Positions 1,834 through 23,197 of a DNA stretch of 64,000 bases are shown here, one piece after another. The stretch is from a virus (Duplodnaviria > Caudoviricetes): the IMG/VR virus record IMGVR_UViG_3300027971_004105. One strand, given 5' to 3'. Position numbers and translations under genes: made by a program. Below the pieces are notes generated by a model. The model was not told where the DNA came from and searched no databases. It saw only the letters and a program-made list of their open reading frames with translations. Every line of letters begins with the position of its first letter. Position 1 is the first letter of the stretch.

Positions 1834-3516
1834 ATGAGTTGGAAAAGATATTTTAATCAAGTGAGTGACAACGAGATCTACACTCGCACAGGTCGCATGG
1901 CAGGTCCAGCCAAGACCAACTACAGTTCTTATTTGCCAGATGTGTATGTGGGATCACCCAACAGAGTGGAACGCTATGGACAATACAATGTGATGGACAT
2001 GGATTCCGAAGTGAATGCAGCCTTGGACATCCTGGCTGAATTTTGTTCGCAACTGAACAAACAGAATGACACAAATTTTAAACTGAATTTCAAACAACCT
2101 GCCACCAATGCAGAAATCACCATACTGAAACAATATCTACAGCAATGGTGCAAACTGAACAATTTCAACAAGAGAATTTTTAGAATATTCCGTAATGTGT
2201 TCAAGTACGGTGATGCTTTCTTTATCAAAGATCCTGAAACTAAAAAATGGTTCCATGTGGATCCAGCCAAAGTGACCAAGATCATTGTGAATGAATCAGA
2301 AGGCAAGAAACCAGAACAGTACATGATACGTGACATAAATTTAAATTTTAAAGATTTGATTGCTACCACTCCATACGAAACCAACAACAATATCACAGCA
2401 GGTGGTTCTGGCTATTTGGCAGGCAGTGTGCGTGGTATGGTGGGCATGAGCCCCGAACAGTCTGGATCAAGATTCACCACCAGTTTGAAAGAAACTGCTG
2501 TGAGTGCAGAACATGTGATACATTTGAGTTTGAGTGAAGGACTGGACAATAATTTCCCATTTGGAAATTCTTTATTAGAGTCCATATTTAAAGTGTACAA
2601 ACAAAAAGAATTATTGGAAGACGCAATTATCATTTATAGGGTGCAAAGAGCTCCAGAACGTCGTGTGTTCTATGTGGACGTGGGCAATATGCCTTCACAC
2701 TTGGCCATGCAGTTTGTGGAAAGAGTCAAAACAGAAATTCATCAAAGACGTATTCCATCATCTACAGGCGGTGGAACCAATGTGATAGATTCTGCCTACA
2801 ATCCATTATCCATCAATGAAGACTTTTTCTTCCCTCAGACAGCAGAAGGTCGCGGATCAAAAGTGGAAACACTGCCAGGCGGTACCAACCTTGGTGAAAT
2901 TGATGATTTAAAATACTTTACTAATAAACTGCTGCGTGGATTGCGTATTCCCAGCTCATACCTGCCCACAGGACCAGATGACAGCAATGCACAGTACACA
3001 GATGGCAGAGTGGGCACTGCTTACATTCAAGAATTGAGATTCAACAACTATTGTGAAAGATTACAGAACTTGGTCGCAGATGAATTCAACAACGATTTTA
3101 AAAAATATCTTTTGGAAAAAGGAGTCAACATTGATGTGAGCATGTTTGATATCAAGTTTCAAACTCCACAAAACTTTGCTTCTTACAGACAAGCAGAATT
3201 GGACAACAACAGAATCCAAACATTCAGTCAAGTGGCAGCACTGCCTTACATCAGCAACAGATATGCACTGATGAGATTTTTGGGCATGAGTGCAGATGAA
3301 TTGGCTGAAAACGAAAGATTATGGCGTGAAGAAAATGATGAGAAATTCAAAGTTAAACCCACTGCATCAGCTGCTGAAATGCGCAGCGCAGGCATCAGCT
3401 CTGCCAACATACAGCAGGATTTAGCAGCACAAGAACCAGAAACCACTGCTCCAGTGGAACCCACAGATACCACAGGTGGTGCTGGCGCCACTCCAGGCAC
3501 AACTCCCACCACATAA
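1834..3516 (+). CDS. gp20: Portal protein, T4 gp20-like
   Basis: Motifs LLEDAIIIYRVQRAPERRVFYVDVGNMP, EDFFFPQTAEGRGSKVETLPGG, YFTNKLLRGLRIPSS. ATG at 1834 (MSWKRYF) preferred over TTG at 1816. Confidence 0.95.
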   Translation: MSWKRYFNQVSDNEIYTRTGRMAGPAKTNYSSYLPDVYVGSPNRVERYGQYNVMDMDSEVNAALDILAEFCSQLNKQNDTNFKLNFKQPATNAEITILKQYLQQWCKLNNFNKRIFRIFRNVFKYGDAFFIKDPETKKWFHVDPAKVTKIIVNESEGKKPEQYMIRDINLNFKDLIATTPYETNNNITAGGSGYLAGSVRGMVGMSPEQSGSRFTTSLKETAVSAEHVIHLSLSEGLDNNFPFGNSLLESIFKVYKQKELLEDAIIIYRVQRAPERRVFYVDVGNMPSHLAMQFVERVKTEIHQRRIPSSTGGGTNVIDSAYNPLSINEDFFFPQTAEGRGSKVETLPGGTNLGEIDDLKYFTNKLLRGLRIPSSYLPTGPDDSNAQYTDGRVGTAYIQELRFNNYCERLQNLVADEFNNDFKKYLLEKGVNIDVSMFDIKFQTPQNFASYRQAELDNNRIQTFSQVAALPYISNRYALMRFLGMSADELAENERLWREENDEKFKVKPTASAAEMRSAGISSANIQQDLAAQEPETTAPVEPTDTTGGAGATPGTTPTT

Positions 3517-3519
3517 GCA

Positions 3520-3525
3520 TAAATA
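3520..3525 (+). promoter_or_regulatory. TAAATA late-promoter-like motif, 5 nt before ATG 3531
   Basis: Same hexamer recurs in most intergenic gaps; resembles T4 late consensus TATAAATA. Confidence 0.65.
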
Positions 3526-3530
3526 ATTTC

Positions 3531-3773
3531 ATGCTACTGCGTGAAATTTTCTATTTTGACAAAAATGATGTGAACACCTCTGATCACAAAATGTATGATC
3601 CTCAGCATGATCAATCCATTATTGGCACCACAGACACTCGCAAAACTAGATTTACTCTGAAACAAATCAACAGAGCTCGCAAAGCCAGTGAATTTCACAA
3701 CAATGAACAGCAAAAAGAACTGGAATTTGTGAGAAACATGTACAGTATCGCCAGCACTCAACCCACAGCCTAA
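3531..3773 (+). CDS. Hypothetical protein, 80 aa
   Basis: Fills the gap between portal and next gene; preceded by TAAATA. Confidence 0.7.
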   Translation: MLLREIFYFDKNDVNTSDHKMYDPQHDQSIIGTTDTRKTRFTLKQINRARKASEFHNNEQQKELEFVRNMYSIASTQPTA

Positions 3774-3788
3774 CCTGAACAGCCAAGC

Positions 3789-4568
3789 ATGGCCAAATTA
3801 GACAAATCTTTATACACCAAAGAACAGTGGAAAGCCATCAAACATCAGCGTAACTCTGACAAAGCACAGCACAGACTGACCAAGCAGGGTCATAGCACAA
3901 CAGTGCAGCCTGCTCCTCATCAGCACACACCTGTTGCACCCACACCTCAACACAGACCACCAGTGGATGGCAACATTGCTTTTGTGGTGGGCAATGGACT
4001 GAGTCGCAAAAATATCAACCTGGATTATCTGCGTGAATGGGGCAAAATTTATGGTTGCAATGCACTGTATCGTGAATTTAGACCAGATTTTTTGGTGGCA
4101 GTGGATGCCAAGATGATTGTGGAGATTTGTGAAAGCCAATGGCAACTGCAAAACCCTGTGTGGACCAATCCCAACAAAAACATGGAAAAGTTCAAAGGAT
4201 TGAATTTTTTCAAACCCAGTCAAGGATGGAGTTCAGGACCCACAGCACTGTGGTTGGCCACTTCACATCAGCACACCACACTTTATATATTAGGGTTTGA
4301 TTATGTGGGCACTGCAGAGGGCAAACTCAACAACCTTTATGGCAGCACACGCAACTACCGCAACAACACAGATCCAGCCACATATCACGGCAATTGGCAG
4401 CGTCAAACCGGCATTGTGATACAGAAAAACCCCAAAAACCAATACATTAGGGTGGTGCCAGACAGTGGAGCAGGCTATCAAGCAGAAGATTTTAAAAAAT
4501 ATCGCAATTACTCCGAAATGCGGGTGTCAGATTTTCGCAACAGCTTTTGCAGACCAAAACCTGTGTAA
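3789..4568 (+). CDS. DUF115/MptE/Maf-like Rossmann-type protein, possibly glycosyltransferase-related
   Basis: AFVVGNGLSR, YGCNALYR, DFLVAVD, SSGPTALWLA and YILGFD motifs; N-terminal basic His/Pro-rich extension. Confidence 0.55.
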   Translation: MAKLDKSLYTKEQWKAIKHQRNSDKAQHRLTKQGHSTTVQPAPHQHTPVAPTPQHRPPVDGNIAFVVGNGLSRKNINLDYLREWGKIYGCNALYREFRPDFLVAVDAKMIVEICESQWQLQNPVWTNPNKNMEKFKGLNFFKPSQGWSSGPTALWLATSHQHTTLYILGFDYVGTAEGKLNNLYGSTRNYRNNTDPATYHGNWQRQTGIVIQKNPKNQYIRVVPDSGAGYQAEDFKKYRNYSEMRVSDFRNSFCRPKPV

Positions 4569-7381: not shown

Positions 7382-8551
7382 ATGTCAGAACTAACAGAAG
7401 CACGCTGGTCAGAAACAAAATCAGCATTGTTAGAAGGTCTAAAAGGTAACAGAAAATCTGTTATGGATGTGACTCTTGAGAATACTAGAAAGTATATCAA
7501 TGAATCAGCATCAGCTGGAAGCACTTCTGCAGGCAATGTTGCTACTTTAAACAGAGTAATTCTACCAGTAATAAGACGAGTTATGCCAACTGTAATTGCC
7601 AACGAATTAGTAGGCGTACAGCCAATGACTGGTCCAGTGGGACAAATCCACACGTTAAGAGTAAGATACGCAGAAGCATCAAGCGGTACAACTACAACTA
7701 CTGCAGGTGAAGAAGCTTTATCACCGTTCAAAATCGCAGAAGCATATTCTGGCGACAATTCATCTACTAAAGCAGGTTCAACATCAGCTTTAGAAGGTAC
7801 AGGTGGTAAAAAACTATCGATCCAAATCTTGAAGCAAACTGTAGAAGCCAAAAGCAGAAAATTATCTGCAAACTGGACCTTCGAATCAGCTCAAGATGCT
7901 CAATCACAACAAGGTATCGACATCGAAGCAGAGATCATGGCAGCATTAGCTCAAGAGATCACTGCAGAGATTGACCAAGAAATCATTGGTTCATTGTATT
8001 CATTAGCTGGTTCAGCTTTCAATACATTTGACCAACAAGCGGTTTCTGGAACTGCAACTTTCGTCGGTGACGAACACGCAGCTCTTGCTATCTTGATCAA
8101 TAGAGCAGCTAACGCGATAGCACAAAGAACAAGAAGAGGCGCTGGAAACTACGCAGTAGTATCTCCAACTGCTTTGACTATACTTCAATCAGCTACAACT
8201 TCAGCATTCGCAAGAAGCACTGAAGGCACATTTGAAGCTCCAACTAACAATAAATTAGTAGGAACTTTGAACTCAGCTATGAAAGTATACGTTAACACTT
8301 ATGCATCAAGCGATGATGTGTTAGTAGGATACAAAGGTTCATCAGAAGCAGATGCTCCAGCGTTCTACTGCCCATACATTCCTTTAATGTCATCAGGCGT
8401 TGTTCTTAACCCAAGCACTTTCGAACCAACTGTTTCTTTCTTAACAAGATACGGTTACGTAGAATTGTCAAACACAGCATCATCTTTAGGTAATGCTGCT
8501 GACTACTTGGCTAAAGTTGCAGTAACAACTGCTAACTTGTCGTTCGCGTAA
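7382..8551 (+). CDS. gp23: Major capsid protein, T4 gp23-like
   Basis: LVGVQPMTGPVGQIHTLRVRY, TVEAKSRKLSANWTFESAQD, EITAEIDQEII, FYCPYIPL, TRYG motifs. Confidence 0.96.
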   Translation: MSELTEARWSETKSALLEGLKGNRKSVMDVTLENTRKYINESASAGSTSAGNVATLNRVILPVIRRVMPTVIANELVGVQPMTGPVGQIHTLRVRYAEASSGTTTTTAGEEALSPFKIAEAYSGDNSSTKAGSTSALEGTGGKKLSIQILKQTVEAKSRKLSANWTFESAQDAQSQQGIDIEAEIMAALAQEITAEIDQEIIGSLYSLAGSAFNTFDQQAVSGTATFVGDEHAALAILINRAANAIAQRTRRGAGNYAVVSPTALTILQSATTSAFARSTEGTFEAPTNNKLVGTLNSAMKVYVNTYASSDDVLVGYKGSSEADAPAFYCPYIPLMSSGVVLNPSTFEPTVSFLTRYGYVELSNTASSLGNAADYLAKVAVTTANLSFA

Positions 8552-9681: not shown

Positions 9682-9963
9682 ATGGCAGATCAAACAGAAA
9701 AAGAATTGATGCAATCATACCTAGCTCAGAGGAAACAACTGGACACATGGATCCGACATCACCCCATGTTTGCACATGAAATACAAAGAATCAAAAAACA
9801 CATTGACAAACTGATGAACCAGCGTGCGGATCTGTTGATACAGTATCGTCAAACTCGTCGAGAACACTTCAAAGAGCAGGCCAGAATAGTGTTGTTGCAG
9901 GCTCAAAATCATCTGAAAACATTTTCAAAACTAGAGCTATTAGCTACCCTGTCCAAAAGATAA
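9682..9963 (+). CDS. Hypothetical helical protein, 93 aa
   Basis: ATG 9682 lies 5 nt after TAAATA (9671-9676), so it is preferred over ATG 9643. Confidence 0.65.
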   Translation: MADQTEKELMQSYLAQRKQLDTWIRHHPMFAHEIQRIKKHIDKLMNQRADLLIQYRQTRREHFKEQARIVLLQAQNHLKTFSKLELLATLSKR

Positions 9964-10043
9964 ATACTTGCGTTCAACACATGGTTGAACTTATGCGGTT
10001 TAACCCACCGCGTATAACATAGAACGTTAACAGGAGAAAACAA
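9961..10043 (+). promoter_or_regulatory. TAAATA motif followed by a two-hairpin 5' leader
   Basis: TAAATA 9961-9966; hairpins 9972-9990 and 9992-10014; SD CAGGAG at 10031. Confidence 0.5.
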
Positions 10044-10436
10044 ATGGGAAGACCAGTAAGATCAGACCGTAATGGAGTGCAAGTATTTGGAACATACGTG
10101 GGCGCTGCAGAAGGTATCAGATGTGAAGCCTACATAGGTGGAACAAACCAATCAGATGTGTTTATCATAAAACAATTAGGTGCTAGAAGATACAAAGTAC
10201 AAGAAGTATCAGGATCAGTCACAGCAAGAGCTAAACTTGTGTCTGGTGTACCAGCAGCAGCAGGTGAAATGAGATTGACCGGACATTTAAACGGTGATCC
10301 AGCTCAACCAATTGTGTTGAGCAAATTGAACAAACGCACAGCAGCGAGCTACGCAGGAGCCAGATATAAATGGGTACTGAATGATGACTCAGCTACAGGC
10401 GAAGAAGGCAGAATAAATTTAACACTAATATCATAA
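10044..10436 (+). CDS. Hypothetical virion-associated protein, 130 aa
   Basis: Good SD; first gene after a late motif in the structural cluster. Confidence 0.6.
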   Translation: MGRPVRSDRNGVQVFGTYVGAAEGIRCEAYIGGTNQSDVFIIKQLGARRYKVQEVSGSVTARAKLVSGVPAAAGEMRLTGHLNGDPAQPIVLSKLNKRTAASYAGARYKWVLNDDSATGEEGRINLTLIS

Positions 10437-13098: not shown

Positions 13099-13117
13099 TA
13101 TTTGTTATCACAGCAAA

Positions 13118-13123
13118 TAAATA
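13118..13123 (+). promoter_or_regulatory. TAAATA late-promoter-like motif
   Basis: Intergenic; SD AAGGAG before ATG 13145. Confidence 0.6.
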
Positions 13124-13144
13124 CTACACACAACAAGGAGACGC

Positions 13145-16100
13145 ATGCCTAATCCGGTAGGACGAATATCAGGCCCTTTGCTGAGAAGCAATCTACAACG
13201 CACAGATGATCTGGCTTTTGAAACAGATCTGTTGTACATCAACCATTCAGGGTCTCGCATAGGTGTCAAAACAGATTCACCCACCAGACCTCTTCAGGTC
13301 AATGGCACATTAAATTCCAACAACATCATAGCCACCAATTCAGCTGTGTTTGGCGACATGACATTCAACAGCACTGGTATCAGTGCATTGAGCGGTGTGA
13401 TATCCATCACATCTGCAGGCACCATTGAAGCTCCGAATTTGCGTGTGGGCGATATTTTTTTCGATGGCAATGTGTTAGGTACCTATACCACTGATTCAGA
13501 TCTGCAGCTGGAAGCCAACGGCACAGGTTCTGTGATGTTCAACAGCAGCGTGGAAGTGACCGGCAACATACATGCCACAGGAGATATCACAGCAGATGGC
13601 AACATTGTGATAGGCACTGGTGATGAAGACAATCTATCTTTTGGTGCTGATCTTGCTTCAGACATTTTACCCAATGTTTCTGCCACACCTCTCACAGCAG
13701 CCGTGATCACATCAGGCAGTTGTCCTGAAACTTGGGCTGTGCCAAGAACATTGTCAGTGATAGGCACACTGAATGGCAAAAATCGTTACAACTATTTTAA
13801 TGAATATTTGGAGTGGACCGGAACATTTTGGAAATATTGGAACACCACTGTGGGTCCTGCTGCATACTATCGCAGTGATGATGTGACCACTTTTCCTTGG
13901 CAAGCCACCACATGGACTGCTGTGGGAGGACTGGGGACACCAGTGCCTATTTTTTCTCAACAGAGCAGCACAGGTTTCAACATAGGTGGTTCTCCCAGCA
14001 AACGTTGGGCAAATTACGAAGGCAAACAGGGTGATGTGGCTAATAATATTTTAGTGGATGACAATGTGAGTTTGGCAGGTATCACAGTGAATTTGGGCAT
14101 TGAAAACAAATTCTATGTGAGTGTTAATGGAGTAGACACCAATCCTGGAGATCATCCTAATTTTGCTTTTGCCACATTATCCACAGCATTGTCTGCTGCT
14201 CAAACAGCAGGTGGCAACAATCTCATAATGATCATGCCAGGTGAATACACAGAAACTTTTCCTTTGACCATTCCTGCCAACACCACTGTGAAAGGATCAG
14301 GAATCAGAACAGTGAGCATCATGCCAGACACCAGTTCACAAAGTCAAGATGCTTTCAGACTCAACAACAACACCACAGTGAGTGATTTGACCATTAGAAA
14401 TTTTTACAGTCCAGGATATGCTTTTAGATTTGCCAACAATATAAATGTGACCACCAAATCCCCCTACATACAAAATGTCACTGTGATCACTGCAGGTTCT
14501 GTGACATCAGGTTCAGATCCTAGAGGATTTGACGCAGGTGATGCGGGTAAAGGAGCACTGGTGGATGGCAGTGTGGTGAATGCAGCCAGCAATCAAGCCA
14601 GCATGTTGTTCAATGCAGTGACGTTTATCACACCTGGTGTGGATGCTGTGACCATGACCAACGGAGTGAGGGTGGAGTTTATTGATTCATTCACTTATTT
14701 TGCCAACAGAAGTTTGTATGCCACCAACGGCTCTTTGGGATTTGCCAGTATAGGTAATTCTGTTTATGGATTTGACAGTATTGTAGCATTTTATGGACAA
14801 AACGGAATTGTACTAACCGGAGCAGGCGGCAAAACGGTAACTGTTAACGTTTCAAATGTTGGAGTAGTAACTGTTGTTAGCGTAGATACAGGCGCTGAAT
14901 CTGGATACTATACATCCACTGGCGGAACTACCTGGGTTTTTACAGCAGGCAAATTTGGTGCTGAAGTGAGAGTGATTGCCAGTGCATCTGTGTACGGAAA
15001 TTATGGCGCAGTTGCAGATGGTGATCAAACACTGATGTATCTGATCAATCACAACATGGCTTATGTGGGTTCTGGCAAAGATGTGACCAATGATAGAAGT
15101 TTAGTAGTGCAGGCACAGGAAACTGTGGAATTAAATTCTGGAAGGATCTATTATCAGAGTCAAGATCAGAGTGGCAATTTTAGAGTGGGAGATGTGTTTG
15201 AAGTAAACTTTGATACAGGATTTGTTGATCTGGCTCCTGGCAGTTTTGCTTTCAGTGGTTCCAGCCTCACAGTGGGCACTCCTGGATCTCAAACATTCAT
15301 AGACGCAGACAAAATCACGTTGCCCAACTTTACCATATCAGGCAACACCATCAAAAGTGATATCAATGAAGTGAACATCACTGCAGCAGACAACAATATT
15401 AATTTTTTAACCAACACCAATATCAATAATGATTTAGCAATATCAGGCGACGTTACTATTGGTGGCAGTCTAATCAATCTAGGTAATCAGGTCACTGATA
15501 CCATTGATTTTGAAATGGAATTCATCAGTGATATCATACCAGCTGTGGACAATGTGTACAATCTAGGTCAAGGAAGTGGTGGTAGTTTAACTTTTTCTAG
15601 TAGTAATTATCTTTCTTTAAGTGCTCCTCAAACGATAGGCACACAAGCGTTTACCTTTGAATGTTTCTTTTATACAGCTAGTAATGGACTACAGACACTG
15701 CTAGGAGCGACGTCTGCTGGAGCAATGTCAATATGGTTGTTTGGTGACGGAACTAATCCAGTAACCACTATACAAATTGATAGATCCTATGTTGATGCTG
15801 CTCAATACACAGTTAGTCCCATAACCATAAACACATGGCATCACATTGCAGTCACAAGAGACAGTTCAAACAATATGTCAGTATTTTTAGATGGTGTCAA
15901 AGCTACTGGATCCACATCAAATACCACAAACTACACTGGACCCAGCGGGTTAATTGGAGCAGTTGCAGGATCTGGTTATTATTTTACAGGATATTTGACG
16001 CAGATAAAATTAGCTGTAGGCTCAAACTATTACAATCCAACTGCATCCAGTATCTCAGTTCCCACAACATCATTAACAACCAGTGCAAATACAAAGTTAT

Positions 16101-17098
16101 TGTTAACTGTGGCTACTAGTGGTGCATACCTTACAGATATCAGCGGAACACAAACAATATCTAATATAGGTGTAGTTACTTACGGCACAGTTTCACCATT
16201 CACAGCATTGAATTGGGACAATGTGTACACCCGTGAGTTTGTGGTGGGAGATATCACTATCTCAGACAATTACATGGTGGCCAATCAGAGCAACATAGAT
16301 CTAGTGATTCAAGCCAATGGCACTGGCAGAGTGGTTGTGGACAATTTAAGATTCAAAACATTGGTGGACAGCACCTCGGGCAACATCAACATTGCCAACA
16401 GCAGCAGAACCACAAATTTTACCGGCAAAGCCATACAGTTGCCCACAGGCAATGCAGCACAGCGACCCAATGTGAATGCAGATCTGCGATACAATTCTGT
16501 CACTGGACAGTTTGAAGGCTACAATGGCGCTGCTTTGATTTTGGGAGGTGTGAAAGATTTAGATCAGGACACCAGAATTGAACTCAACAGTGATCAATTT
16601 TATTTCTATGCCAATGGAGTTAACACTGGAAGAATAGACACTGCAGGTAACTTGATCGTGAATCGTTTTCACAGTCAATCACAATTTGCCTTGAACGACA
16701 ACACAGTCACAGTGGGATCTGCCACACCAGGCACAGTGGCAGGCATGACTGCCAACGGCACAGGAGTGGTGCAGTTTGACACCAGCAATTATGTGTTCAA
16801 CAACGGCACCATACGCAACACAGTCACCAACAGTGACATACTGTTTCAGATGACTGGTGTACAGAAAGAACAAAAAGTAGAATTTCGTGCCAACAACAAA
16901 GCAGTGCGTGTGCCATTTGGTAATACTCTTCAAAGAAATCCTGGAGTGGTTGGAGAAATATACTACAACACTCAAGCACAAAAACTGCAGGTTTACAGCG
17001 GCAGCACTTGGAATGATGCTGCTGGAGCTACCTTGGTCACAGTGACCACTGAAGTGGCTCAAGACTTGGATGTCATCTACAACTTAATTCTAGCATAA
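13145..17098 (+). CDS. Large tail fibre/spike protein with beta-helix-like and LamG (ConA-like) domains
   Basis: 1317 aa; KSPYIQNV beta-helix region, FTFECFFY...WHHIAVTR LamG motif, DQSGNFRVG; paralogue of 17258. Confidence 0.75.
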   Translation: MPNPVGRISGPLLRSNLQRTDDLAFETDLLYINHSGSRIGVKTDSPTRPLQVNGTLNSNNIIATNSAVFGDMTFNSTGISALSGVISITSAGTIEAPNLRVGDIFFDGNVLGTYTTDSDLQLEANGTGSVMFNSSVEVTGNIHATGDITADGNIVIGTGDEDNLSFGADLASDILPNVSATPLTAAVITSGSCPETWAVPRTLSVIGTLNGKNRYNYFNEYLEWTGTFWKYWNTTVGPAAYYRSDDVTTFPWQATTWTAVGGLGTPVPIFSQQSSTGFNIGGSPSKRWANYEGKQGDVANNILVDDNVSLAGITVNLGIENKFYVSVNGVDTNPGDHPNFAFATLSTALSAAQTAGGNNLIMIMPGEYTETFPLTIPANTTVKGSGIRTVSIMPDTSSQSQDAFRLNNNTTVSDLTIRNFYSPGYAFRFANNINVTTKSPYIQNVTVITAGSVTSGSDPRGFDAGDAGKGALVDGSVVNAASNQASMLFNAVTFITPGVDAVTMTNGVRVEFIDSFTYFANRSLYATNGSLGFASIGNSVYGFDSIVAFYGQNGIVLTGAGGKTVTVNVSNVGVVTVVSVDTGAESGYYTSTGGTTWVFTAGKFGAEVRVIASASVYGNYGAVADGDQTLMYLINHNMAYVGSGKDVTNDRSLVVQAQETVELNSGRIYYQSQDQSGNFRVGDVFEVNFDTGFVDLAPGSFAFSGSSLTVGTPGSQTFIDADKITLPNFTISGNTIKSDINEVNITAADNNINFLTNTNINNDLAISGDVTIGGSLINLGNQVTDTIDFEMEFISDIIPAVDNVYNLGQGSGGSLTFSSSNYLSLSAPQTIGTQAFTFECFFYTASNGLQTLLGATSAGAMSIWLFGDGTNPVTTIQIDRSYVDAAQYTVSPITINTWHHIAVTRDSSNNMSVFLDGVKATGSTSNTTNYTGPSGLIGAVAGSGYYFTGYLTQIKLAVGSNYYNPTASSISVPTTSLTTSANTKLLLTVATSGAYLTDISGTQTISNIGVVTYGTVSPFTALNWDNVYTREFVVGDITISDNYMVANQSNIDLVIQANGTGRVVVDNLRFKTLVDSTSGNINIANSSRTTNFTGKAIQLPTGNAAQRPNVNADLRYNSVTGQFEGYNGAALILGGVKDLDQDTRIELNSDQFYFYANGVNTGRIDTAGNLIVNRFHSQSQFALNDNTVTVGSATPGTVAGMTANGTGVVQFDTSNYVFNNGTIRNTVTNSDILFQMTGVQKEQKVEFRANNKAVRVPFGNTLQRNPGVVGEIYYNTQAQKLQVYSGSTWNDAAGATLVTVTTEVAQDLDVIYNLILA

Positions 17099-17122
17099 CA
17101 GAACTAAATCCACCAAAATCAA

Positions 17123-17257
17123 TAAATACACTTAATGCTGAGATCTGACCAAGATTTCTGCAGGACAAACCGTGGTTCAACCCGCGAAGAGCTTTGATCT
17201 ATCCAAAGATGAAAAGGTGGTTGGTGGCACAAGGATGCCCGTTTAAAGGAGAAAAGC
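17123..17257 (+). ncRNA. Candidate structured cis-regulatory leader RNA downstream of TAAATA
   Basis: About 130-nt GC-richer leader with four hand-folded hairpins and possible pseudoknot; no family recognised. Confidence 0.4.
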
Positions 17258-20200
17258 ATGGCCGTTGGTCGAATTTCCGGTCAGCTCTTGAAGGATAACC
17301 TGATCCGTTCCACACTACCAGTGGGCGAACAGAATATTGCCTTTGAGACTGATCTGTTATATATTGATATAATAAATTCTAGGATCGGTATAAAAACTGC
17401 CAATCCTCAATATCCTTTAGATGTAAACGGAACCACCAGAACTGTAAATTTAGAAGTCACCAACACTGCCAACATCAGCGATTTAACCTTGACTGGCACT
17501 TCAATAACCACCACCAATCCTGTGTTGTCCATTGCTTCACCTGACAAAATTTTATACAACAATGCCATTATAGTGGATGATTTTCAAATATCCAACAACC
17601 TCATTGAGACAACCACTTCTAACACAGATCTACAAATCAGTGCAAATGGCACAGGTATTGTGGACATTCTCAGTGATGTGGAAGTGACTGGAAATATATA
17701 TGCCACGGGCAACATCACAGCAGATGGCAATATCACATTGGGAAATCAGGACACTGACAATGTGACCATCAATGCTGACATCAACAGCGATATTATACCC
17801 AATACCACAGACACTTATGATTTAGGCACTGGTGCAAAACGTTGGAATGAAATGTTTGTTTCTGACCTAACTGTGGACAACTTAACAGTGGGCGGCAACA
17901 TACTAGTGGGTGGATTGGATCTAACTCAAACTCCTGGCAACATCATATATGTGGCCACCAATGGTGACAATGCCAACACCGGCACGCATCAAAATGATCC
18001 AGTATTGACCATTCAACAAGCCATCACATTGGCCACTGCAGGAGATTTGATACACATTTATCCAGGCACCTACACAGAAACATTTCCCATCACTGTGCCT
18101 GTGGGAGTAACTATCAAAGGCGAATCATTGCGATCAGTGTTTATTCAACCCACTGGTGGCACCATTGACCAGAATGCTTTCATATTGAATGGTGAAACCA
18201 CTATTGAAGATTTAACAGTGGGCAATTTCCGTTTCAATGCTGGATTAAACAGAGGATATGCTTTTAGATATGCTGCATCATTCACAGTGACCACACGTTC
18301 ACCCTATATCAAAAACGTGAGTGTGATCACCACAGGTTCTGTGACATCTGGCGCAGATCCCAGAGGATTCAACACTGGTGATGCTGGCAAAGGAGCTTAT
18401 TTGGATGGCAGTTTGGCCACAGCAGGCAGCAATGAAGCCAGTTGTTTGTTTCAAAATTGCACATTCATAACTCCAGGTGTGGATGCCATCACCATGACCA
18501 ATGGAGTGAGAGTGGAATGGTTGAATTCATTCACATATTTTGCCAATAGAAGTTTGTATGCAGTGGATGGTGTGTCTGGTTTGAAAGGCACTGGAAAAAC
18601 ACTGCTGAAAGTGGATGGCTTATCAGGACCTGCAGTGATTGCTGGTCAAACCATCACTTACAAAGATGTGGACAATGTTACAGTTTTGGGCACAGGCACC
18701 ATTGCCACAGTGGATGGAACAAAAATTTATCTCACAGGCAAAGTTGTAGGATTTGAAAATGCCACAGACCGTCCAGGTAAAACTGTCACATCTCATGGCA
18801 ATGCACAATTGAGCACAGCTCAAATTAAATATGGCAGCAGTAGTTTATTATTGGATGGTGTAGGCGATTATTTGAGCATTGCCACGCAGGCAGACTTTGG
18901 CTATGCATCTGGAAATTTTACCATTGAGTTCTGGTTAAGAATCACCAGCTTGGGCAATCAAGTGATCATCGAACAGAGATCAGCATCGGCTCTCAACAAT
19001 CCAATGATCCATATTAATAGTGGAGTAATAAAATATTACGCAGCTGCCGCTAACAGAATCACAGGCTCCACTACTATTGCCATCAACACTTGGTATCATG
19101 TGGCTGTAAGCAAAAGCAGTGGCACCACCAAACTGTTCGTGAATGGCACACAGGAAGGCAGTTCTTATGTGGACGCCAACGACTATGGCAGCACATCCAC
19201 TTTGATTGTGGGAGCTGACTATTTGTACGCCAATACGCTATCTGCCTATCTAGATGATTTAAGAATTGTCAAAAGCGCAGCAATATACACCAGTAATTTT
19301 ACAGCACCCACCACTCAGTTGACTGCTACTCCCAACACTGTGCTGTTGTTGAATTTCAACGGTATTAATGCAGCTACCACTATGGAAGACTCAGTGGAAG
19401 GCGCACAATTTATAAGTTTTTCAGGCGGAGGTGTGGCCACCAGTTTTGTTAATGTGGACTACACAGACTTTGGCGCAGAAGTGAGAAGCATAGCATCTGC
19501 TTCTATCTATGGCAATTACGGAGCATACGGTTCTGGAGCAGGAGTATTGATGTATTTGATTGGACACAATTTTGCCTACATTGGTTTAGGCAAAGAAGTG
19601 GACAATGATCCATCCACGGCCATACAGGTCAACGAAGTGATAGAATTATCCAACGCAAGAATATTTTACAGTTCAGTGGATCACAAAGGTGATTTCCGAG
19701 TGGGAGATTTATTCTATGTGAATCAAGCAGACGGTACAGTAACGTTCACTTCTGCTTTCACCAACATTGCTTCCAGCAGCACATTAACTTTCACTTCTGG
19801 TGGACATACCACTATCATTGATGGATCTTATATTCAACAAGACAATGTGAAATTGAGCGGCAACACCATTGAAAGTACCACAGGAGCATTGAATTTGGAT
19901 GCAGACAATGGACAGATCAATCTATTGGACAATGTGAGCATCTCAGGCGACTTGGATGTCACAGGAGATGTCAGCATTGGTGGAAATATTACCATTGGTG
20001 ATCAAACCACTGACACTTTGAGCATTGTGGCAGCTATTACCAGCGACATCATTCCACAAACCACTAACACATACAATTTGGGCAGTGCAGCTAAAAATTG
20101 GAACACAGTGTACAGTTCCACCATCAATGTGGATGGCAACATCAGAATTGAAAACAATTTGATCACCACACAGACCACCAATTCAAATCTACAATTGAGT

Positions 20201-20986
20201 GGTGCTGGCACAGGCAGTGTGGAGATAGAAAATTTTAGAATCAACGACAACACCATCACCAATACCACTGGTGATATGACCTTTACTCCGGCCACAGGTG
20301 TCACGGTGTTCACAGGCACAGGCAGTGTGAGATTGCCAGCAGGTGGTAACGCTGCCAGACCTGCCATACCCACTGCGGGCATGATCAGATACAACACTGA
20401 TTCCAATCTATTTGAAGGTTATGATGGCAGTTGGACTGTGCTGCAAGGTGTGTATGATTTGGATCGCAACACCTACATCACTCCAGAATTAACTCCTGGA
20501 GCCAATGACAACACCATAAGATTTTACAGCAACAACACTTTGGTGGCAGATGTCAACAGCACTCGTTTTGATGTGAACACATTACAAGTGGACAGCATCA
20601 CCATATCAGGCAACACATTGACCACCACAGGTACTAACCAAGATTTGATATTGAATGCCAACGGCACAGGCATCATCAGAATTGAAAATTTAAATTTTCA
20701 AACCAACACCATTACCAATTATGTGACAAATGCTCCCATCATATTTGAAACCACCGGTGATGGTTATGTGGATTTGAGTCAGGCAGGCGGAGTGCGTATA
20801 CCTTATGGATTGTCTGCACAGAAACCCTCTGCTCCTGTGATAGGATTGATGAGATACAATCAAGATGATTTGTATGTGGAAATTTATGACGGGTCAAACT
20901 GGGTGTCTGTGGCAGGATCAGGCGGTGCTGTAACACTCACACAAGCAGAGCAATTTGCAATAGAATATGCACTTACTTTAGGATAA
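17258..20986 (+). CDS. Large tail fibre/spike protein with beta-helix-like and LamG domains
   Basis: 1242 aa; MAVGRISG start like MPNPVGRISG of 13145; RSPYIKNV, FTIEFW...WYHVAVS, DHKGDFRVG; C-terminus EYALTLG. Confidence 0.75.
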   Translation: MAVGRISGQLLKDNLIRSTLPVGEQNIAFETDLLYIDIINSRIGIKTANPQYPLDVNGTTRTVNLEVTNTANISDLTLTGTSITTTNPVLSIASPDKILYNNAIIVDDFQISNNLIETTTSNTDLQISANGTGIVDILSDVEVTGNIYATGNITADGNITLGNQDTDNVTINADINSDIIPNTTDTYDLGTGAKRWNEMFVSDLTVDNLTVGGNILVGGLDLTQTPGNIIYVATNGDNANTGTHQNDPVLTIQQAITLATAGDLIHIYPGTYTETFPITVPVGVTIKGESLRSVFIQPTGGTIDQNAFILNGETTIEDLTVGNFRFNAGLNRGYAFRYAASFTVTTRSPYIKNVSVITTGSVTSGADPRGFNTGDAGKGAYLDGSLATAGSNEASCLFQNCTFITPGVDAITMTNGVRVEWLNSFTYFANRSLYAVDGVSGLKGTGKTLLKVDGLSGPAVIAGQTITYKDVDNVTVLGTGTIATVDGTKIYLTGKVVGFENATDRPGKTVTSHGNAQLSTAQIKYGSSSLLLDGVGDYLSIATQADFGYASGNFTIEFWLRITSLGNQVIIEQRSASALNNPMIHINSGVIKYYAAAANRITGSTTIAINTWYHVAVSKSSGTTKLFVNGTQEGSSYVDANDYGSTSTLIVGADYLYANTLSAYLDDLRIVKSAAIYTSNFTAPTTQLTATPNTVLLLNFNGINAATTMEDSVEGAQFISFSGGGVATSFVNVDYTDFGAEVRSIASASIYGNYGAYGSGAGVLMYLIGHNFAYIGLGKEVDNDPSTAIQVNEVIELSNARIFYSSVDHKGDFRVGDLFYVNQADGTVTFTSAFTNIASSSTLTFTSGGHTTIIDGSYIQQDNVKLSGNTIESTTGALNLDADNGQINLLDNVSISGDLDVTGDVSIGGNITIGDQTTDTLSIVAAITSDIIPQTTNTYNLGSAAKNWNTVYSSTINVDGNIRIENNLITTQTTNSNLQLSGAGTGSVEIENFRINDNTITNTTGDMTFTPATGVTVFTGTGSVRLPAGGNAARPAIPTAGMIRYNTDSNLFEGYDGSWTVLQGVYDLDRNTYITPELTPGANDNTIRFYSNNTLVADVNSTRFDVNTLQVDSITISGNTLTTTGTNQDLILNANGTGIIRIENLNFQTNTITNYVTNAPIIFETTGDGYVDLSQAGGVRIPYGLSAQKPSAPVIGLMRYNQDDLYVEIYDGSNWVSVAGSGGAVTLTQAEQFAIEYALTLG

Positions 20987-21895: not shown

Positions 21896-23197
21896 ATGGT
21901 AAAACAGATAATCAATGATGGCGTAACACCCAATGATGGTCAGGGAGATAATCTAAGAGCCGGAGCTATCAAAATCAATTCAAATTTTGACGAAATTTAC
22001 TCAGCCTTGGGCAATGGAGTCAGTCTGACTGTGATCAACAACAATCTGATCACTGCCACAGGTCAAAATAAAATCACTTTCAAATACAACAATTTGGCAG
22101 GTTTGCCCAATGCTACCACCTACAGTGGCATGTTTGGTTTCACCAGTGACACTGACAAGGCTTATGTGGCTGTGGATGGCACATGGACAGAATTATTAAC
22201 CACTGCTTCCAGCATCAACTCTCTGAGTGATGTGAACACCACAGCAGTGCCTGCAGATGGACAAGCTCTATTATGGAACGCAGCCACTTCCAATTGGATT
22301 CCTGGCACAGTCAGCGGAGGAGGCGGAGGCGCAGCAGCCACTACTTTTTTAGCTCTCACAGACACTCCAGCCAACTACACAGCAGCCGGCAGTAGATTTG
22401 TCAAAGTCAACAGTGGAGCAACTGGATTAGAATTTGTGGCAGGCATTCAAAGTTCTGATGTCAGTGCCATATCAATCAATTCACTGTCAGATGTGGACAC
22501 AGCCACAACATTGCCTTCAGTGGGACAGGTTTTAAAATGGAATGGCACCAATTGGGTACCAGCAGCAGATGCCACGTCAGGTGGTGGTGGAACCAATGCT
22601 GACACACTGGATGGATTTGACAGCACATATTTCTTAAATTATCAGAATTTGACCAACCAGCCCACCATACCAACCACTTTTTTAGCTCTCACAGACACTC
22701 CAGCCAACTACACATCAGCAGGTGGCAGATTTGTCAAAGTGAACGCAGGAGCCACTGCACTGGAATTTACCAGCGTGAGTATTCCTGCCACATTGGATGA
22801 TCTCACAGATGTGGTGATATCTGCACCCACAGTGGGAGACATGCTGTACTACAATGGCACCAACTGGGTCAAACAGAATGGTCCCATAATCAGATGGAGT
22901 TTGTCTGCCAGTGGCAGTGCTGATTACGTGTACACTGGTCCAGGTTTTTATGCATCCACCAATGATCCCACTCTGTATCTGCACAGAGGAACCACATACA
23001 TTTTCAGCAACACTGTGCATGCCACTCATCCTTTGGAAATCAGAGTGAGCAATGGAGGTGCTGCATACACCAATGGAATATCTGGTGCTGGCACTGACAC
23101 TGTAACTTTCACAGTGCCCATGGATGCTCCCGGCACACTGTATTATCAATGCACAGTGCATTCAAGCATGGGCAATACCATCAACATTGTAACTTAA
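21896..23197 (+). CDS. Baseplate wedge/fibre protein with gp9/gp10-like N-terminus and C-terminal cupredoxin-like domain
   Basis: KQIINDGVTPNDGQGDNLRAGAIKINSNFDEIY N-terminus; LSDV/LTDV fibre repeats; C-terminal HP...LYYQCTVHSSM. Confidence 0.75.
   Translation: MVKQIINDGVTPNDGQGDNLRAGAIKINSNFDEIYSALGNGVSLTVINNNLITATGQNKITFKYNNLAGLPNATTYSGMFGFTSDTDKAYVAVDGTWTELLTTASSINSLSDVNTTAVPADGQALLWNAATSNWIPGTVSGGGGGAAATTFLALTDTPANYTAAGSRFVKVNSGATGLEFVAGIQSSDVSAISINSLSDVDTATTLPSVGQVLKWNGTNWVPAADATSGGGGTNADTLDGFDSTYFLNYQNLTNQPTIPTTFLALTDTPANYTSAGGRFVKVNAGATALEFTSVSIPATLDDLTDVVISAPTVGDMLYYNGTNWVKQNGPIIRWSLSASGSADYVYTGPGFYASTNDPTLYLHRGTTYIFSNTVHATHPLEIRVSNGGAAYTNGISGAGTDTVTFTVPMDAPGTLYYQCTVHSSMGNTINIVT
22343..22714 (+). 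repeat. Identical 39-bp direct repeat at 22343-22381 and 22676-22714 (intragenic duplication)
   Basis: acttttttagctctcacagacactccagccaactacaca occurs twice; encodes TFLALTDTPANYT. Confidence 0.9.

Follow-up and report, generated by a model that had tools for sequence, protein, structure and literature searches.

Comparative evidence indicates that the leader of a giant baseplate/fibre gene of an uncultured lake phage (Caudoviricetes) is a conserved structured RNA, located 5' of the gene and folded in the sense strand. It constitutes a new RNA family within a known kind, the cis-regulatory mRNA leader, and is widespread and previously undescribed. We lean towards reading it as a cis-acting translational control RNA that would form the whole 5' untranslated region of the late mRNA of a giant gp7-like baseplate/fibre protein and would pair with codons 3-5 of that gene, with a putative effector. 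The expression link between a hairpin loop and the first codons is unusual and, judged from the aligned sequences, well supported. Coordinates are given as positions in the window (the whole 64-kb stretch of viral DNA that was analysed), in which leader and gene both lie on the (+) strand.

Conserved fold of the leader

A protein-guided search of IMG/VR returned 24 loci, in which the leader was kept wherever upstream DNA was present, even at 38 to 53% protein identity (L015-017, L022-023). The exception among the protein homologues was L019, which displayed a short, unrelated leader. Scanning with a pattern of the core matched at least 119 stretches, about a dozen of which were chance matches in coding DNA, and the rest yielded 87 distinct leaders, each consisting of a late-promoter box, about 115 nt, a Shine-Dalgarno sequence (SD) and the ATG of a gene opening with M-A-(V/I)-G-R-I-S-G. 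A second scan, anchored on the sequence of the P4 hairpin, added 55 leaders with cores differing from the first pattern, and structure counts were made on 54 of them. At least 140 distinct homologous leaders were found in IMG/VR contigs, all before a gene with this N-terminus, and each pattern scan matched at least about 120 stretches of viral contigs, originating in marine, estuarine and lake samples. As leaders were retrieved by exact patterns, some of the "invariant" positions are invariant by construction, which the P4-anchored second set remedies in part.

The covariance model R1, built from nine marine sequences, matched the 64-kb window solely at its copy of the leader (66.4 bits, E 1.6e-12). 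It recovered one copy in each of the 87 and 55 loci (1.4 Mb of related contigs), always before an M-A-(V/I)-G-R-I-S-G gene, and a single copy in a complete viral genome of 357.6 kb from IMG/VR. No match was obtained in the coding-DNA false positives or in L019, and nothing significant in Vibrio phage 2.275.O, PA5oct, Synechococcus phage ACG-2014f and Prochlorococcus phage MED4-213. The window leader and a marine variant had no blastn match among 50,697 phage records, and tblastn against cultured phages aligned only amino acids 110-376 of the protein, with about 32% identity, to cyanophage "baseplate wedge" genes.

The sequence-only reading had recognised no known RNA family in this leader, and the Rfam 15 search of the window, a marine variant and seven further loci bore this out. 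With 4227 models at gathering threshold, the freshwater-2 RNA at 9973-10046 was the only hit in the whole window. At E up to 10, the region 16900-17500 and the marine variant L118 gave noise only, and the seven further loci gave no match at the leader. Full-text literature searches yielded no description of the leader RNA, which may be present, unnamed, among the more than 10,000 viral RNA candidates catalogued in PMC10690425.

Support for the fold was comparative and not thermodynamic: MFE z-scores against shuffled sequence were near zero (-0.16 and -0.65), so that folding energy carried no signal. The MFE fold recovered P1, the CGUGG/CCGCG hairpin and P4. RNAalifold, run on a plain MAFFT alignment, selected the long-range helix S2 unaided. 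In the MAFFT-only alignment of 87 leaders (A2), helices S1, S2 and P4 were 94.5% paired, compared to 32 to 53% when partners were slid by one to three columns. In A4, also of 87 leaders and model-fitted, hence biased toward the modelled structure, 92.5% of the cells of the full structure including the pseudoknot were paired and 21 of the 27 pairs showed double changes, with a covariation score of 0.44 against at most 0.09 for controls, a level reached by none of 500 shuffles. The P4-anchored set, whose core was not forced by the pattern, was 94.0% paired (S1 100%, S2 97%; 54 leaders). Over both leader sets, 92 to 94% of positions were paired compared to 33 to 57% in slid controls, and compensatory changes occurred in 16 to 21 of the 27 pairs. 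Conserved G:U pairs show that it is the sense strand that folds. When all columns were scanned against each other for covariation, to find additional tertiary pairs, only phylogenetic correlations emerged beyond the known helices (e.g., columns 144-155). All stems that had been folded by hand from the single sequence were found in place, and the covariation test showed that orthologous leaders of both sets keep the structure.

From 5' to 3', the leader comprises P1, a conserved AC, the pseudoknot (S1 5' strand, GG, S2 5' strand, S1 3' strand, an A-rich L3 with or without P3, S2 3' strand), one nucleotide, P4, CGU and a short linker to the SD and AUG. P1 (17136-17162), which covaries as the stem first drawn there, is a 5'-terminal hairpin with the apical loop UGACCAA (17146-17152). 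A hairpin was present at this place in essentially all 87 leaders, with very diverse stem sequences, a conserved loop and compensatory changes in all nine pairs, and began 7 nt past the box in 58 of them. P1 was absent altogether from L169, and a subgroup (L153, L168, L209, L212, L222, L227) combined a larger, branched 5' domain with a GUG start.

The conserved AC, the S1 5' strand CGU (17171-17173) and the GG of loop L1 (17174-17175) together span 17169-17175; the GG was constant in leaders retrieved through P4 and not through the core. With its 3' strand GCG (17184-17186), S1 was 100% paired in both sets. Its pyrimidine:purine pair was U:A in 71 and C:G in 16 leaders of the first set (48 and 6 in the P4-anchored set), and its third pair, in the P4-anchored set, was U:G in 52 leaders, C:G in one and U:A in one. 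Of the CGTGG/CCGCG hairpin that had been proposed at 17171-17186, the outer three pairs (17171-17173 with 17184-17186) stand, pairing and covarying as U:A or C:G, while the inner pairs fall, as C17182 and C17183 belong to S2.

The pseudoknot helix S2 joins UCAACCC (17177-17183) to G-u-GGUUGG (17217-17224), the latter strand being placed by the R1 model alignment and pair counts. S2 was 94 to 97% paired with four to five covarying pairs (five in the P4-anchored set), including an N:N' pair (A:U, G:C, C:G, G:U) and a change from CC:GG to CU:AG, seen in six leaders of the P4-anchored set. The pseudoknot originally noticed between GGTTG(G) (17219-17224) and CAACC (17178-17182) thus covaries, and extends beyond the bases first listed.

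P3 (17190-17210) is an optional hairpin within pseudoknot loop L3, of variable length and often with a GNRA loop. It covaries, and in the window it prolongs the CTTTG/CAAAG stem already seen by hand. P3 was missing from 33 of the 54 P4-anchored leaders, in which L3 is the 7-nt AUGYAAG; these leaders are textbook H-type pseudoknots. The minimal form without P3 represented 34 of 140 leaders (L152, L154, L158, L160, L162-L164 and others). The A-rich joining strand GAAAAG (17211-17216; consensus GARAAU) was conserved in A2 and may play an A-minor role.

P4 (17226-17239; GGCA-CAAGGA-UGCC) was 99% paired with all four pairs covarying, as GGGA/UCCC, GGCA/UGCC, GCGA/UCGC and CCGUG/CACGG, which upholds the GGCA/TGCC stem drawn earlier. 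The CGU 3' of P4 (17240-17242) was nearly invariant in A2. The SD AAGGAG (17246-17251) had likewise been rightly picked out, its GGAG being conserved in homologues at constant spacing to the ATG. No conserved anti-SD partner was found among the aligned leaders, nor any terminator 3' of the structure.

Pairing of the P1 loop with codons 3-5

Two competing pseudoknots had been suggested for this leader, the second between GGTTGGT and ACCAA of the P1 loop (17148-17152). This second one was not conserved, most homologues reading GGCUAGAGGG there, and the conserved partner of the P1 loop was instead UUGGUCG at 17265-17271, inside the gene. One firm pseudoknot and a loop-to-coding-region pairing replace the two competing pseudoknots. 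Complementarity, codon constraint, correlated loss and compensatory flips all point to this partner.

The loop, (C/U)GACCA(A), is complementary to (U)UGGUCG, which occupies +8 to +14 in the coding sequence (CDS), and in most leaders the loop and +6 to +15 match over 6 to 10 contiguous complementary bases. The loop-CDS duplex averaged -8.8 kcal/mol, compared to -5.5 for shuffled loops and -6.3 with Gly-Arg recoded as in the paralogues.

Codon choice at this site distinguished leader-bearing genes from leaderless paralogues in the same phages, which also open with V-G-R-I-S-G. GGUCG was found in 75 of 77 leader-bearing genes and in none of 23 leaderless paralogues with the same peptide (L001, an apparent 24th, was truncated upstream and left out). 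The window paralogue at 13145 reads GUA GGA CGA, its Gly-Arg being GGA CGA. In codons 4-5 of leader-bearing genes, Gly was GGU in 76 of 77 and Arg was CGN in 79 of 81, while elsewhere in the same genes GGU accounted for 44% of Gly codons, and CGN and AGA for 39% and 57% of Arg codons. The third base of the Arg codon was free (C 41, A 22, U 16); covariation between this base and the one 5' of CGACC was considered and was not significant (20 of 78 paired, 16.7 expected).

Among 140 leaders, both sites were present in 124, the CDS site only in 11 (GGUCG kept without recognisable GACC upstream), neither in five and the loop only in none (Fisher p of about 1e-5 for the 2x2 table, by our own arithmetic), and the losses of loop and CDS sites are correlated. 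Both were lost in L090 and L127. In L167 and L217, a loop GUCCA faces a CDS UGGAC, which is an A:U to U:A flip made through a synonymous Gly change, and in L059 the strands are swapped (loop UUGGUCG, CDS UGGCCAA); these compensatory flips may represent only three to four independent events. Positions flanking the GACC:GGUC core showed no significant covariation, and the helix is therefore given as a core of 4-7 bp. The codon usage and the flips show an RNA-level constraint tying the P1 loop to codons 3-5.

Two other partners of the loop were considered. Docking of the loop where S1, L1 and S2 meet, on the invariant UGGU(Y), is less likely: this site inside the pseudoknot is unchanged in L167 and L217, where the coding site is changed, which argues against it, on two sequences only. 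Separately, GGUCAG at 17279-17284 (+22 to +27, codons 8-9, G-Q) is complementary to the P1 loop with its closing base (CUGACC) and might serve as a second register, to which the compensatory changes in L167 and L217 give no support.

Gene context, late promoter and lineage

The spacer 17099-17257 separates two giant genes of the same strand, 13145-17098 (1317 aa) and 17258-20986 (1242 aa), the latter opening in the ORF list with the start codon at 17258-17260. Both products have matches among PHROG "baseplate wedge subunit" families, PHROG 13163 in the case of the 1242-aa one, and a Laminin_G_3 lectin domain is present in each; a gp10-like connector gene lies downstream at 21896-23194. The "fibre gene" of the sequence-only reading is therefore part of a T4-type structural module and encodes a baseplate/fibre protein of the gp7-like kind. 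The domain and PHROG search found no RNA-binding domain in the 1242-aa product.

A T4-type late-promoter-like box, AATAAATA, was located at 17121-17128, and its TAAATA was invariant in 87 of the 87 leaders of A2. The window contained 13 ATAAATA boxes, 12 of which lay just 5' of genes, on the coding strand and in short spacers, the pattern expected for T4-type late promoters (PMC3014915). By analogy with these (PMC3014915), the box at 17121-17128 would be a late promoter with transcription starting about 6 nt downstream. The distance from box to ATG was 5 to 33 nt for most genes, 77 nt for the freshwater-2 RNA leader and 129 nt here, and the initial statement that this is the longest leader in the window holds among leaders behind an ATAAATA box. 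The longest spacer behind a late-promoter box (3516-3789; fold z -0.9) is not a leader; it holds an 80-aa ORF that looks unannotated (3531-3773). The upstream paralogue 13145-17098 has the N-terminal V-G-R-I-S-G in common; it follows a late-promoter box of its own, with a leader of 21 nt that is unstructured (region 13117-13147); the adjacent lectin-domain giants are thus under different translational regimes, one behind a short unstructured leader and the other, at 17258, behind a structured one.

The freshwater-2 RNA of the window (RF02980, 63.3 bits; 9973-10046) starts 7 nt past a late-promoter box (9960-9966) and reaches into the ATG of ORF 10044-10436 (130 aa; no PHROG match). It was present in L025 and L032 too, a few kb from their fibre leaders. 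Like the fibre leader, it belongs to the same phage lineage and consists of a late-promoter box and a structured leader that begins within 7 nt and runs to the ATG, but fold, sequence and gene are different, and R1 does not match it.

The Rfam search of further loci showed that leader-bearing contigs also carry manA RNA, glutamine riboswitch and freshwater-2 RNA. The marine contig L059 (12025-12420), which has a fibre leader, encoded both manA RNA (RF01745) and the glutamine riboswitch (RF01739), an RNA repertoire typical of cyanophages that hints at the host of the lineage. The major capsid protein of the window (7382-8548) was 65 to 67% identical to those of the jumbo myoviruses Vibrio phage 2.275.O, PA5oct, Serratia BF and Sinorhizobium Phosso; this identity and the leader copy in the complete 357.6-kb genome make the lineage at least partly jumbo. 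The lineage is aquatic, uncultured and T4-related, and probably cyanophage-like.

Proposed translational control and alternative readings

If the leader is a translational control RNA, transcription would start a few bases past the late-promoter box, just before P1. The RNA folds, as covariation shows, into the 5'-terminal P1, an H-type pseudoknot of compact form (3-bp S1, L1 as GG, 7-bp S2, A-rich L3 with or without P3) and P4, which ends about 18 nt before the start codon. Pairing of the P1 loop with +8 to +14 would close the leader into a ring, leaving SD and AUG single-stranded in the short segment that separates P4 from the loop-CDS helix. As this helix would lie inside the 30S footprint, it may throttle or gate initiation, and the conserved pseudoknot domain may position the loop or set the stability of the helix, or respond to a putative effector (metabolite, ion or protein). 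In either case the level of the fibre/baseplate protein would be adjusted against that of the leaderless paralogue encoded immediately 5' of it. Since the leaders have neither a terminator nor a conserved anti-SD, control would act on translation or mRNA stability; the only link found to the translation initiation region (TIR) is that of the P1 loop with +8 to +14. As the SD is without a conserved partner, a helix of 5-8 bp at +8 to +14 could act mildly, or even stimulate. The degree to which unpaired nucleotides are conserved favours specific recognition.

The TIR-occluding structures of T4 gene e, I-TevI and mobE are alike in that upstream RNA pairs with the TIR and sets the initiation rate (PMC3014915). 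The T4 late promoter is situated within the structure (PMC3014915), so that late transcripts escape, while the fibre-leader promoter lies upstream, so that every transcript would be structured. The target of the fibre leader also differs, being +8 to +14 and not SD or AUG, through a kissing-type loop contact over about 110 nt. Upstream RNA pairs with the TIR as well in the long-distance interactions of RNA coliphages, such as the "Min Jou" interaction of MS2.

A protein-binding translational operator resembling that of T4 gene 32, through which a phage or host protein, possibly the product itself or an assembly partner, would repress or activate initiation, is rather unlikely. Translational autoregulation through a leader pseudoknot has its classic example in T4-type phages (PMC3014915), and in the fibre leader, which comes from a related phage lineage, the pseudoknot and the AUG are similarly spaced. 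As in the gene 32 leaders of T4, T2 and RB69 (PMC3014915, PMC535899), an H-type pseudoknot, with S1 and S2 crossing and both covarying, lies in the 5' leader tens of nt upstream of the start, where it acts or is presumed to act on initiation. The unstructured A/U-rich UUAAA tract that extends to the ribosome-binding site (RBS) in the gene 32 operator is absent here, P4 and a linker of about 7 nt occupying the space, and the fibre leader adds P1, P3, P4 and the loop-to-coding-region pairing, with no sequence similarity. Gene 32 encodes a single-stranded DNA-binding protein, whereas the gene here is a late structural one for the 1242-aa baseplate wedge/fibre protein. The lack of an RNA-binding domain in this product also counts against an operator, and no conserved neighbouring regulator was identified.

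A metabolite- or ion-sensing riboswitch, with the pseudoknot core as aptamer and a putative ligand that changes the access of the P1 loop to codons 3-5, is rather unlikely. The leader does display the conserved, covarying, aptamer-like 5' fold of riboswitches generally; this fold is compact and pseudoknotted, and even where protein identity drops to 38% its unpaired nucleotides (AC, GG, A-rich L3, CGU) persist, a level of conservation typical of riboswitches. Moreover, the same phages carry the glutamine riboswitch, manA RNA and freshwater-2 RNA. Against this, the controlled gene is structural, neither metabolic nor that of a transporter, and so offers no ligand clue; no known Rfam aptamer was matched, and no conserved mutually exclusive alternative pairing was found. 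The preQ1-II riboswitch (RF01054) also combines an H-type pseudoknot with an extra hairpin in loop 3 beside the ribosome-binding site, but its SD lies in the 3' strand of the pseudoknot, whereas that of the fibre leader is separated from the 3' strand of S2, which it follows, by 22 to 27 nt; the fibre leader gave no Rfam match to this family, and the gene contexts are unrelated.

It is also doubtful that the leader is a constitutive element with no effector, in which the 5' hairpin and compact fold would shield the late mRNA from 5'-end-dependent decay and fix a low initiation rate for a low-copy virion protein. P1 would start about 1-2 nt from the inferred 5' end in most leaders, and P3, as well as P1 in one leader, can be lost. 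Other late genes of the window have unstructured leaders of 18 to 33 nt, so that the gene at 17258 is singled out for different handling. Attenuation or protection would not, however, need a pseudoknot with about 20 unpaired nucleotides conserved across marine and freshwater lineages.

We regard as improbable the bolder proposal that the leader is a true sensor, either as a new riboswitch class or through competition between the ACCA-bearing P1 loop and UGGU words, which would couple the physiological state of the host to the translation of one of two adjacent paralogous giants. A self-cleaving ribozyme or processing signal trimming the leader is very improbable: small ribozymes are common in phages, and the hairpin-loop pseudoknot topology and conserved junction nucleotides loosely recall pistol (RF02679), but in pistol the hairpin loop pairs (6 bp) with an internal loop enclosed by P2/P3, while no helix of the fibre leader encloses the S2 3' strand together with the hairpin that follows it. 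Neither the pistol model nor any other Rfam ribozyme family matched the leader, even at E up to 10; its topology fits neither pistol, HDV-like nor hammerhead in our own comparison, and the coding-region pairing argues for leader and CDS on one molecule.

The chance that no RNA structure is involved and that a small ORF, a DNA-level site or recent common ancestry explains the conservation is close to nil, since covariation counts contradict it: stems change in sequence with pairing kept, G:U pairs are specific to one strand, and the ATG with which P1 opens in 68 of 87 leaders, the one point in favour of an ORF, occurs in all three frames relative to the core (peptides of 1-41 aa), no conserved ORF being found in the 87 leaders, which disposes of the small translated ORF that the sequence-only reading had named as its refutation.

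To our knowledge, hardly any late structural gene of a phage has a structured RNA as its leader, and for T4 late genes the strength of promoter and RBS is taken to be the main determinant of expression. For the contact between loop and coding region, a natural series of compensatory mutations exists, and the model and alignments could found a new Rfam family. Even as a constitutive element, the leader would still be a clear case in which mRNA structure fixes synonymous codons and RNA folding controls stoichiometry. The gene behind it probably encodes a receptor-binding or baseplate protein, in an uncultured phage lineage that is partly jumbo. If the leader is a sensor, it would represent a new class of riboswitch whose expression platform is unusual, and virion composition could come to depend on conditions, the infected cell making virions with condition-dependent receptor-binding equipment.
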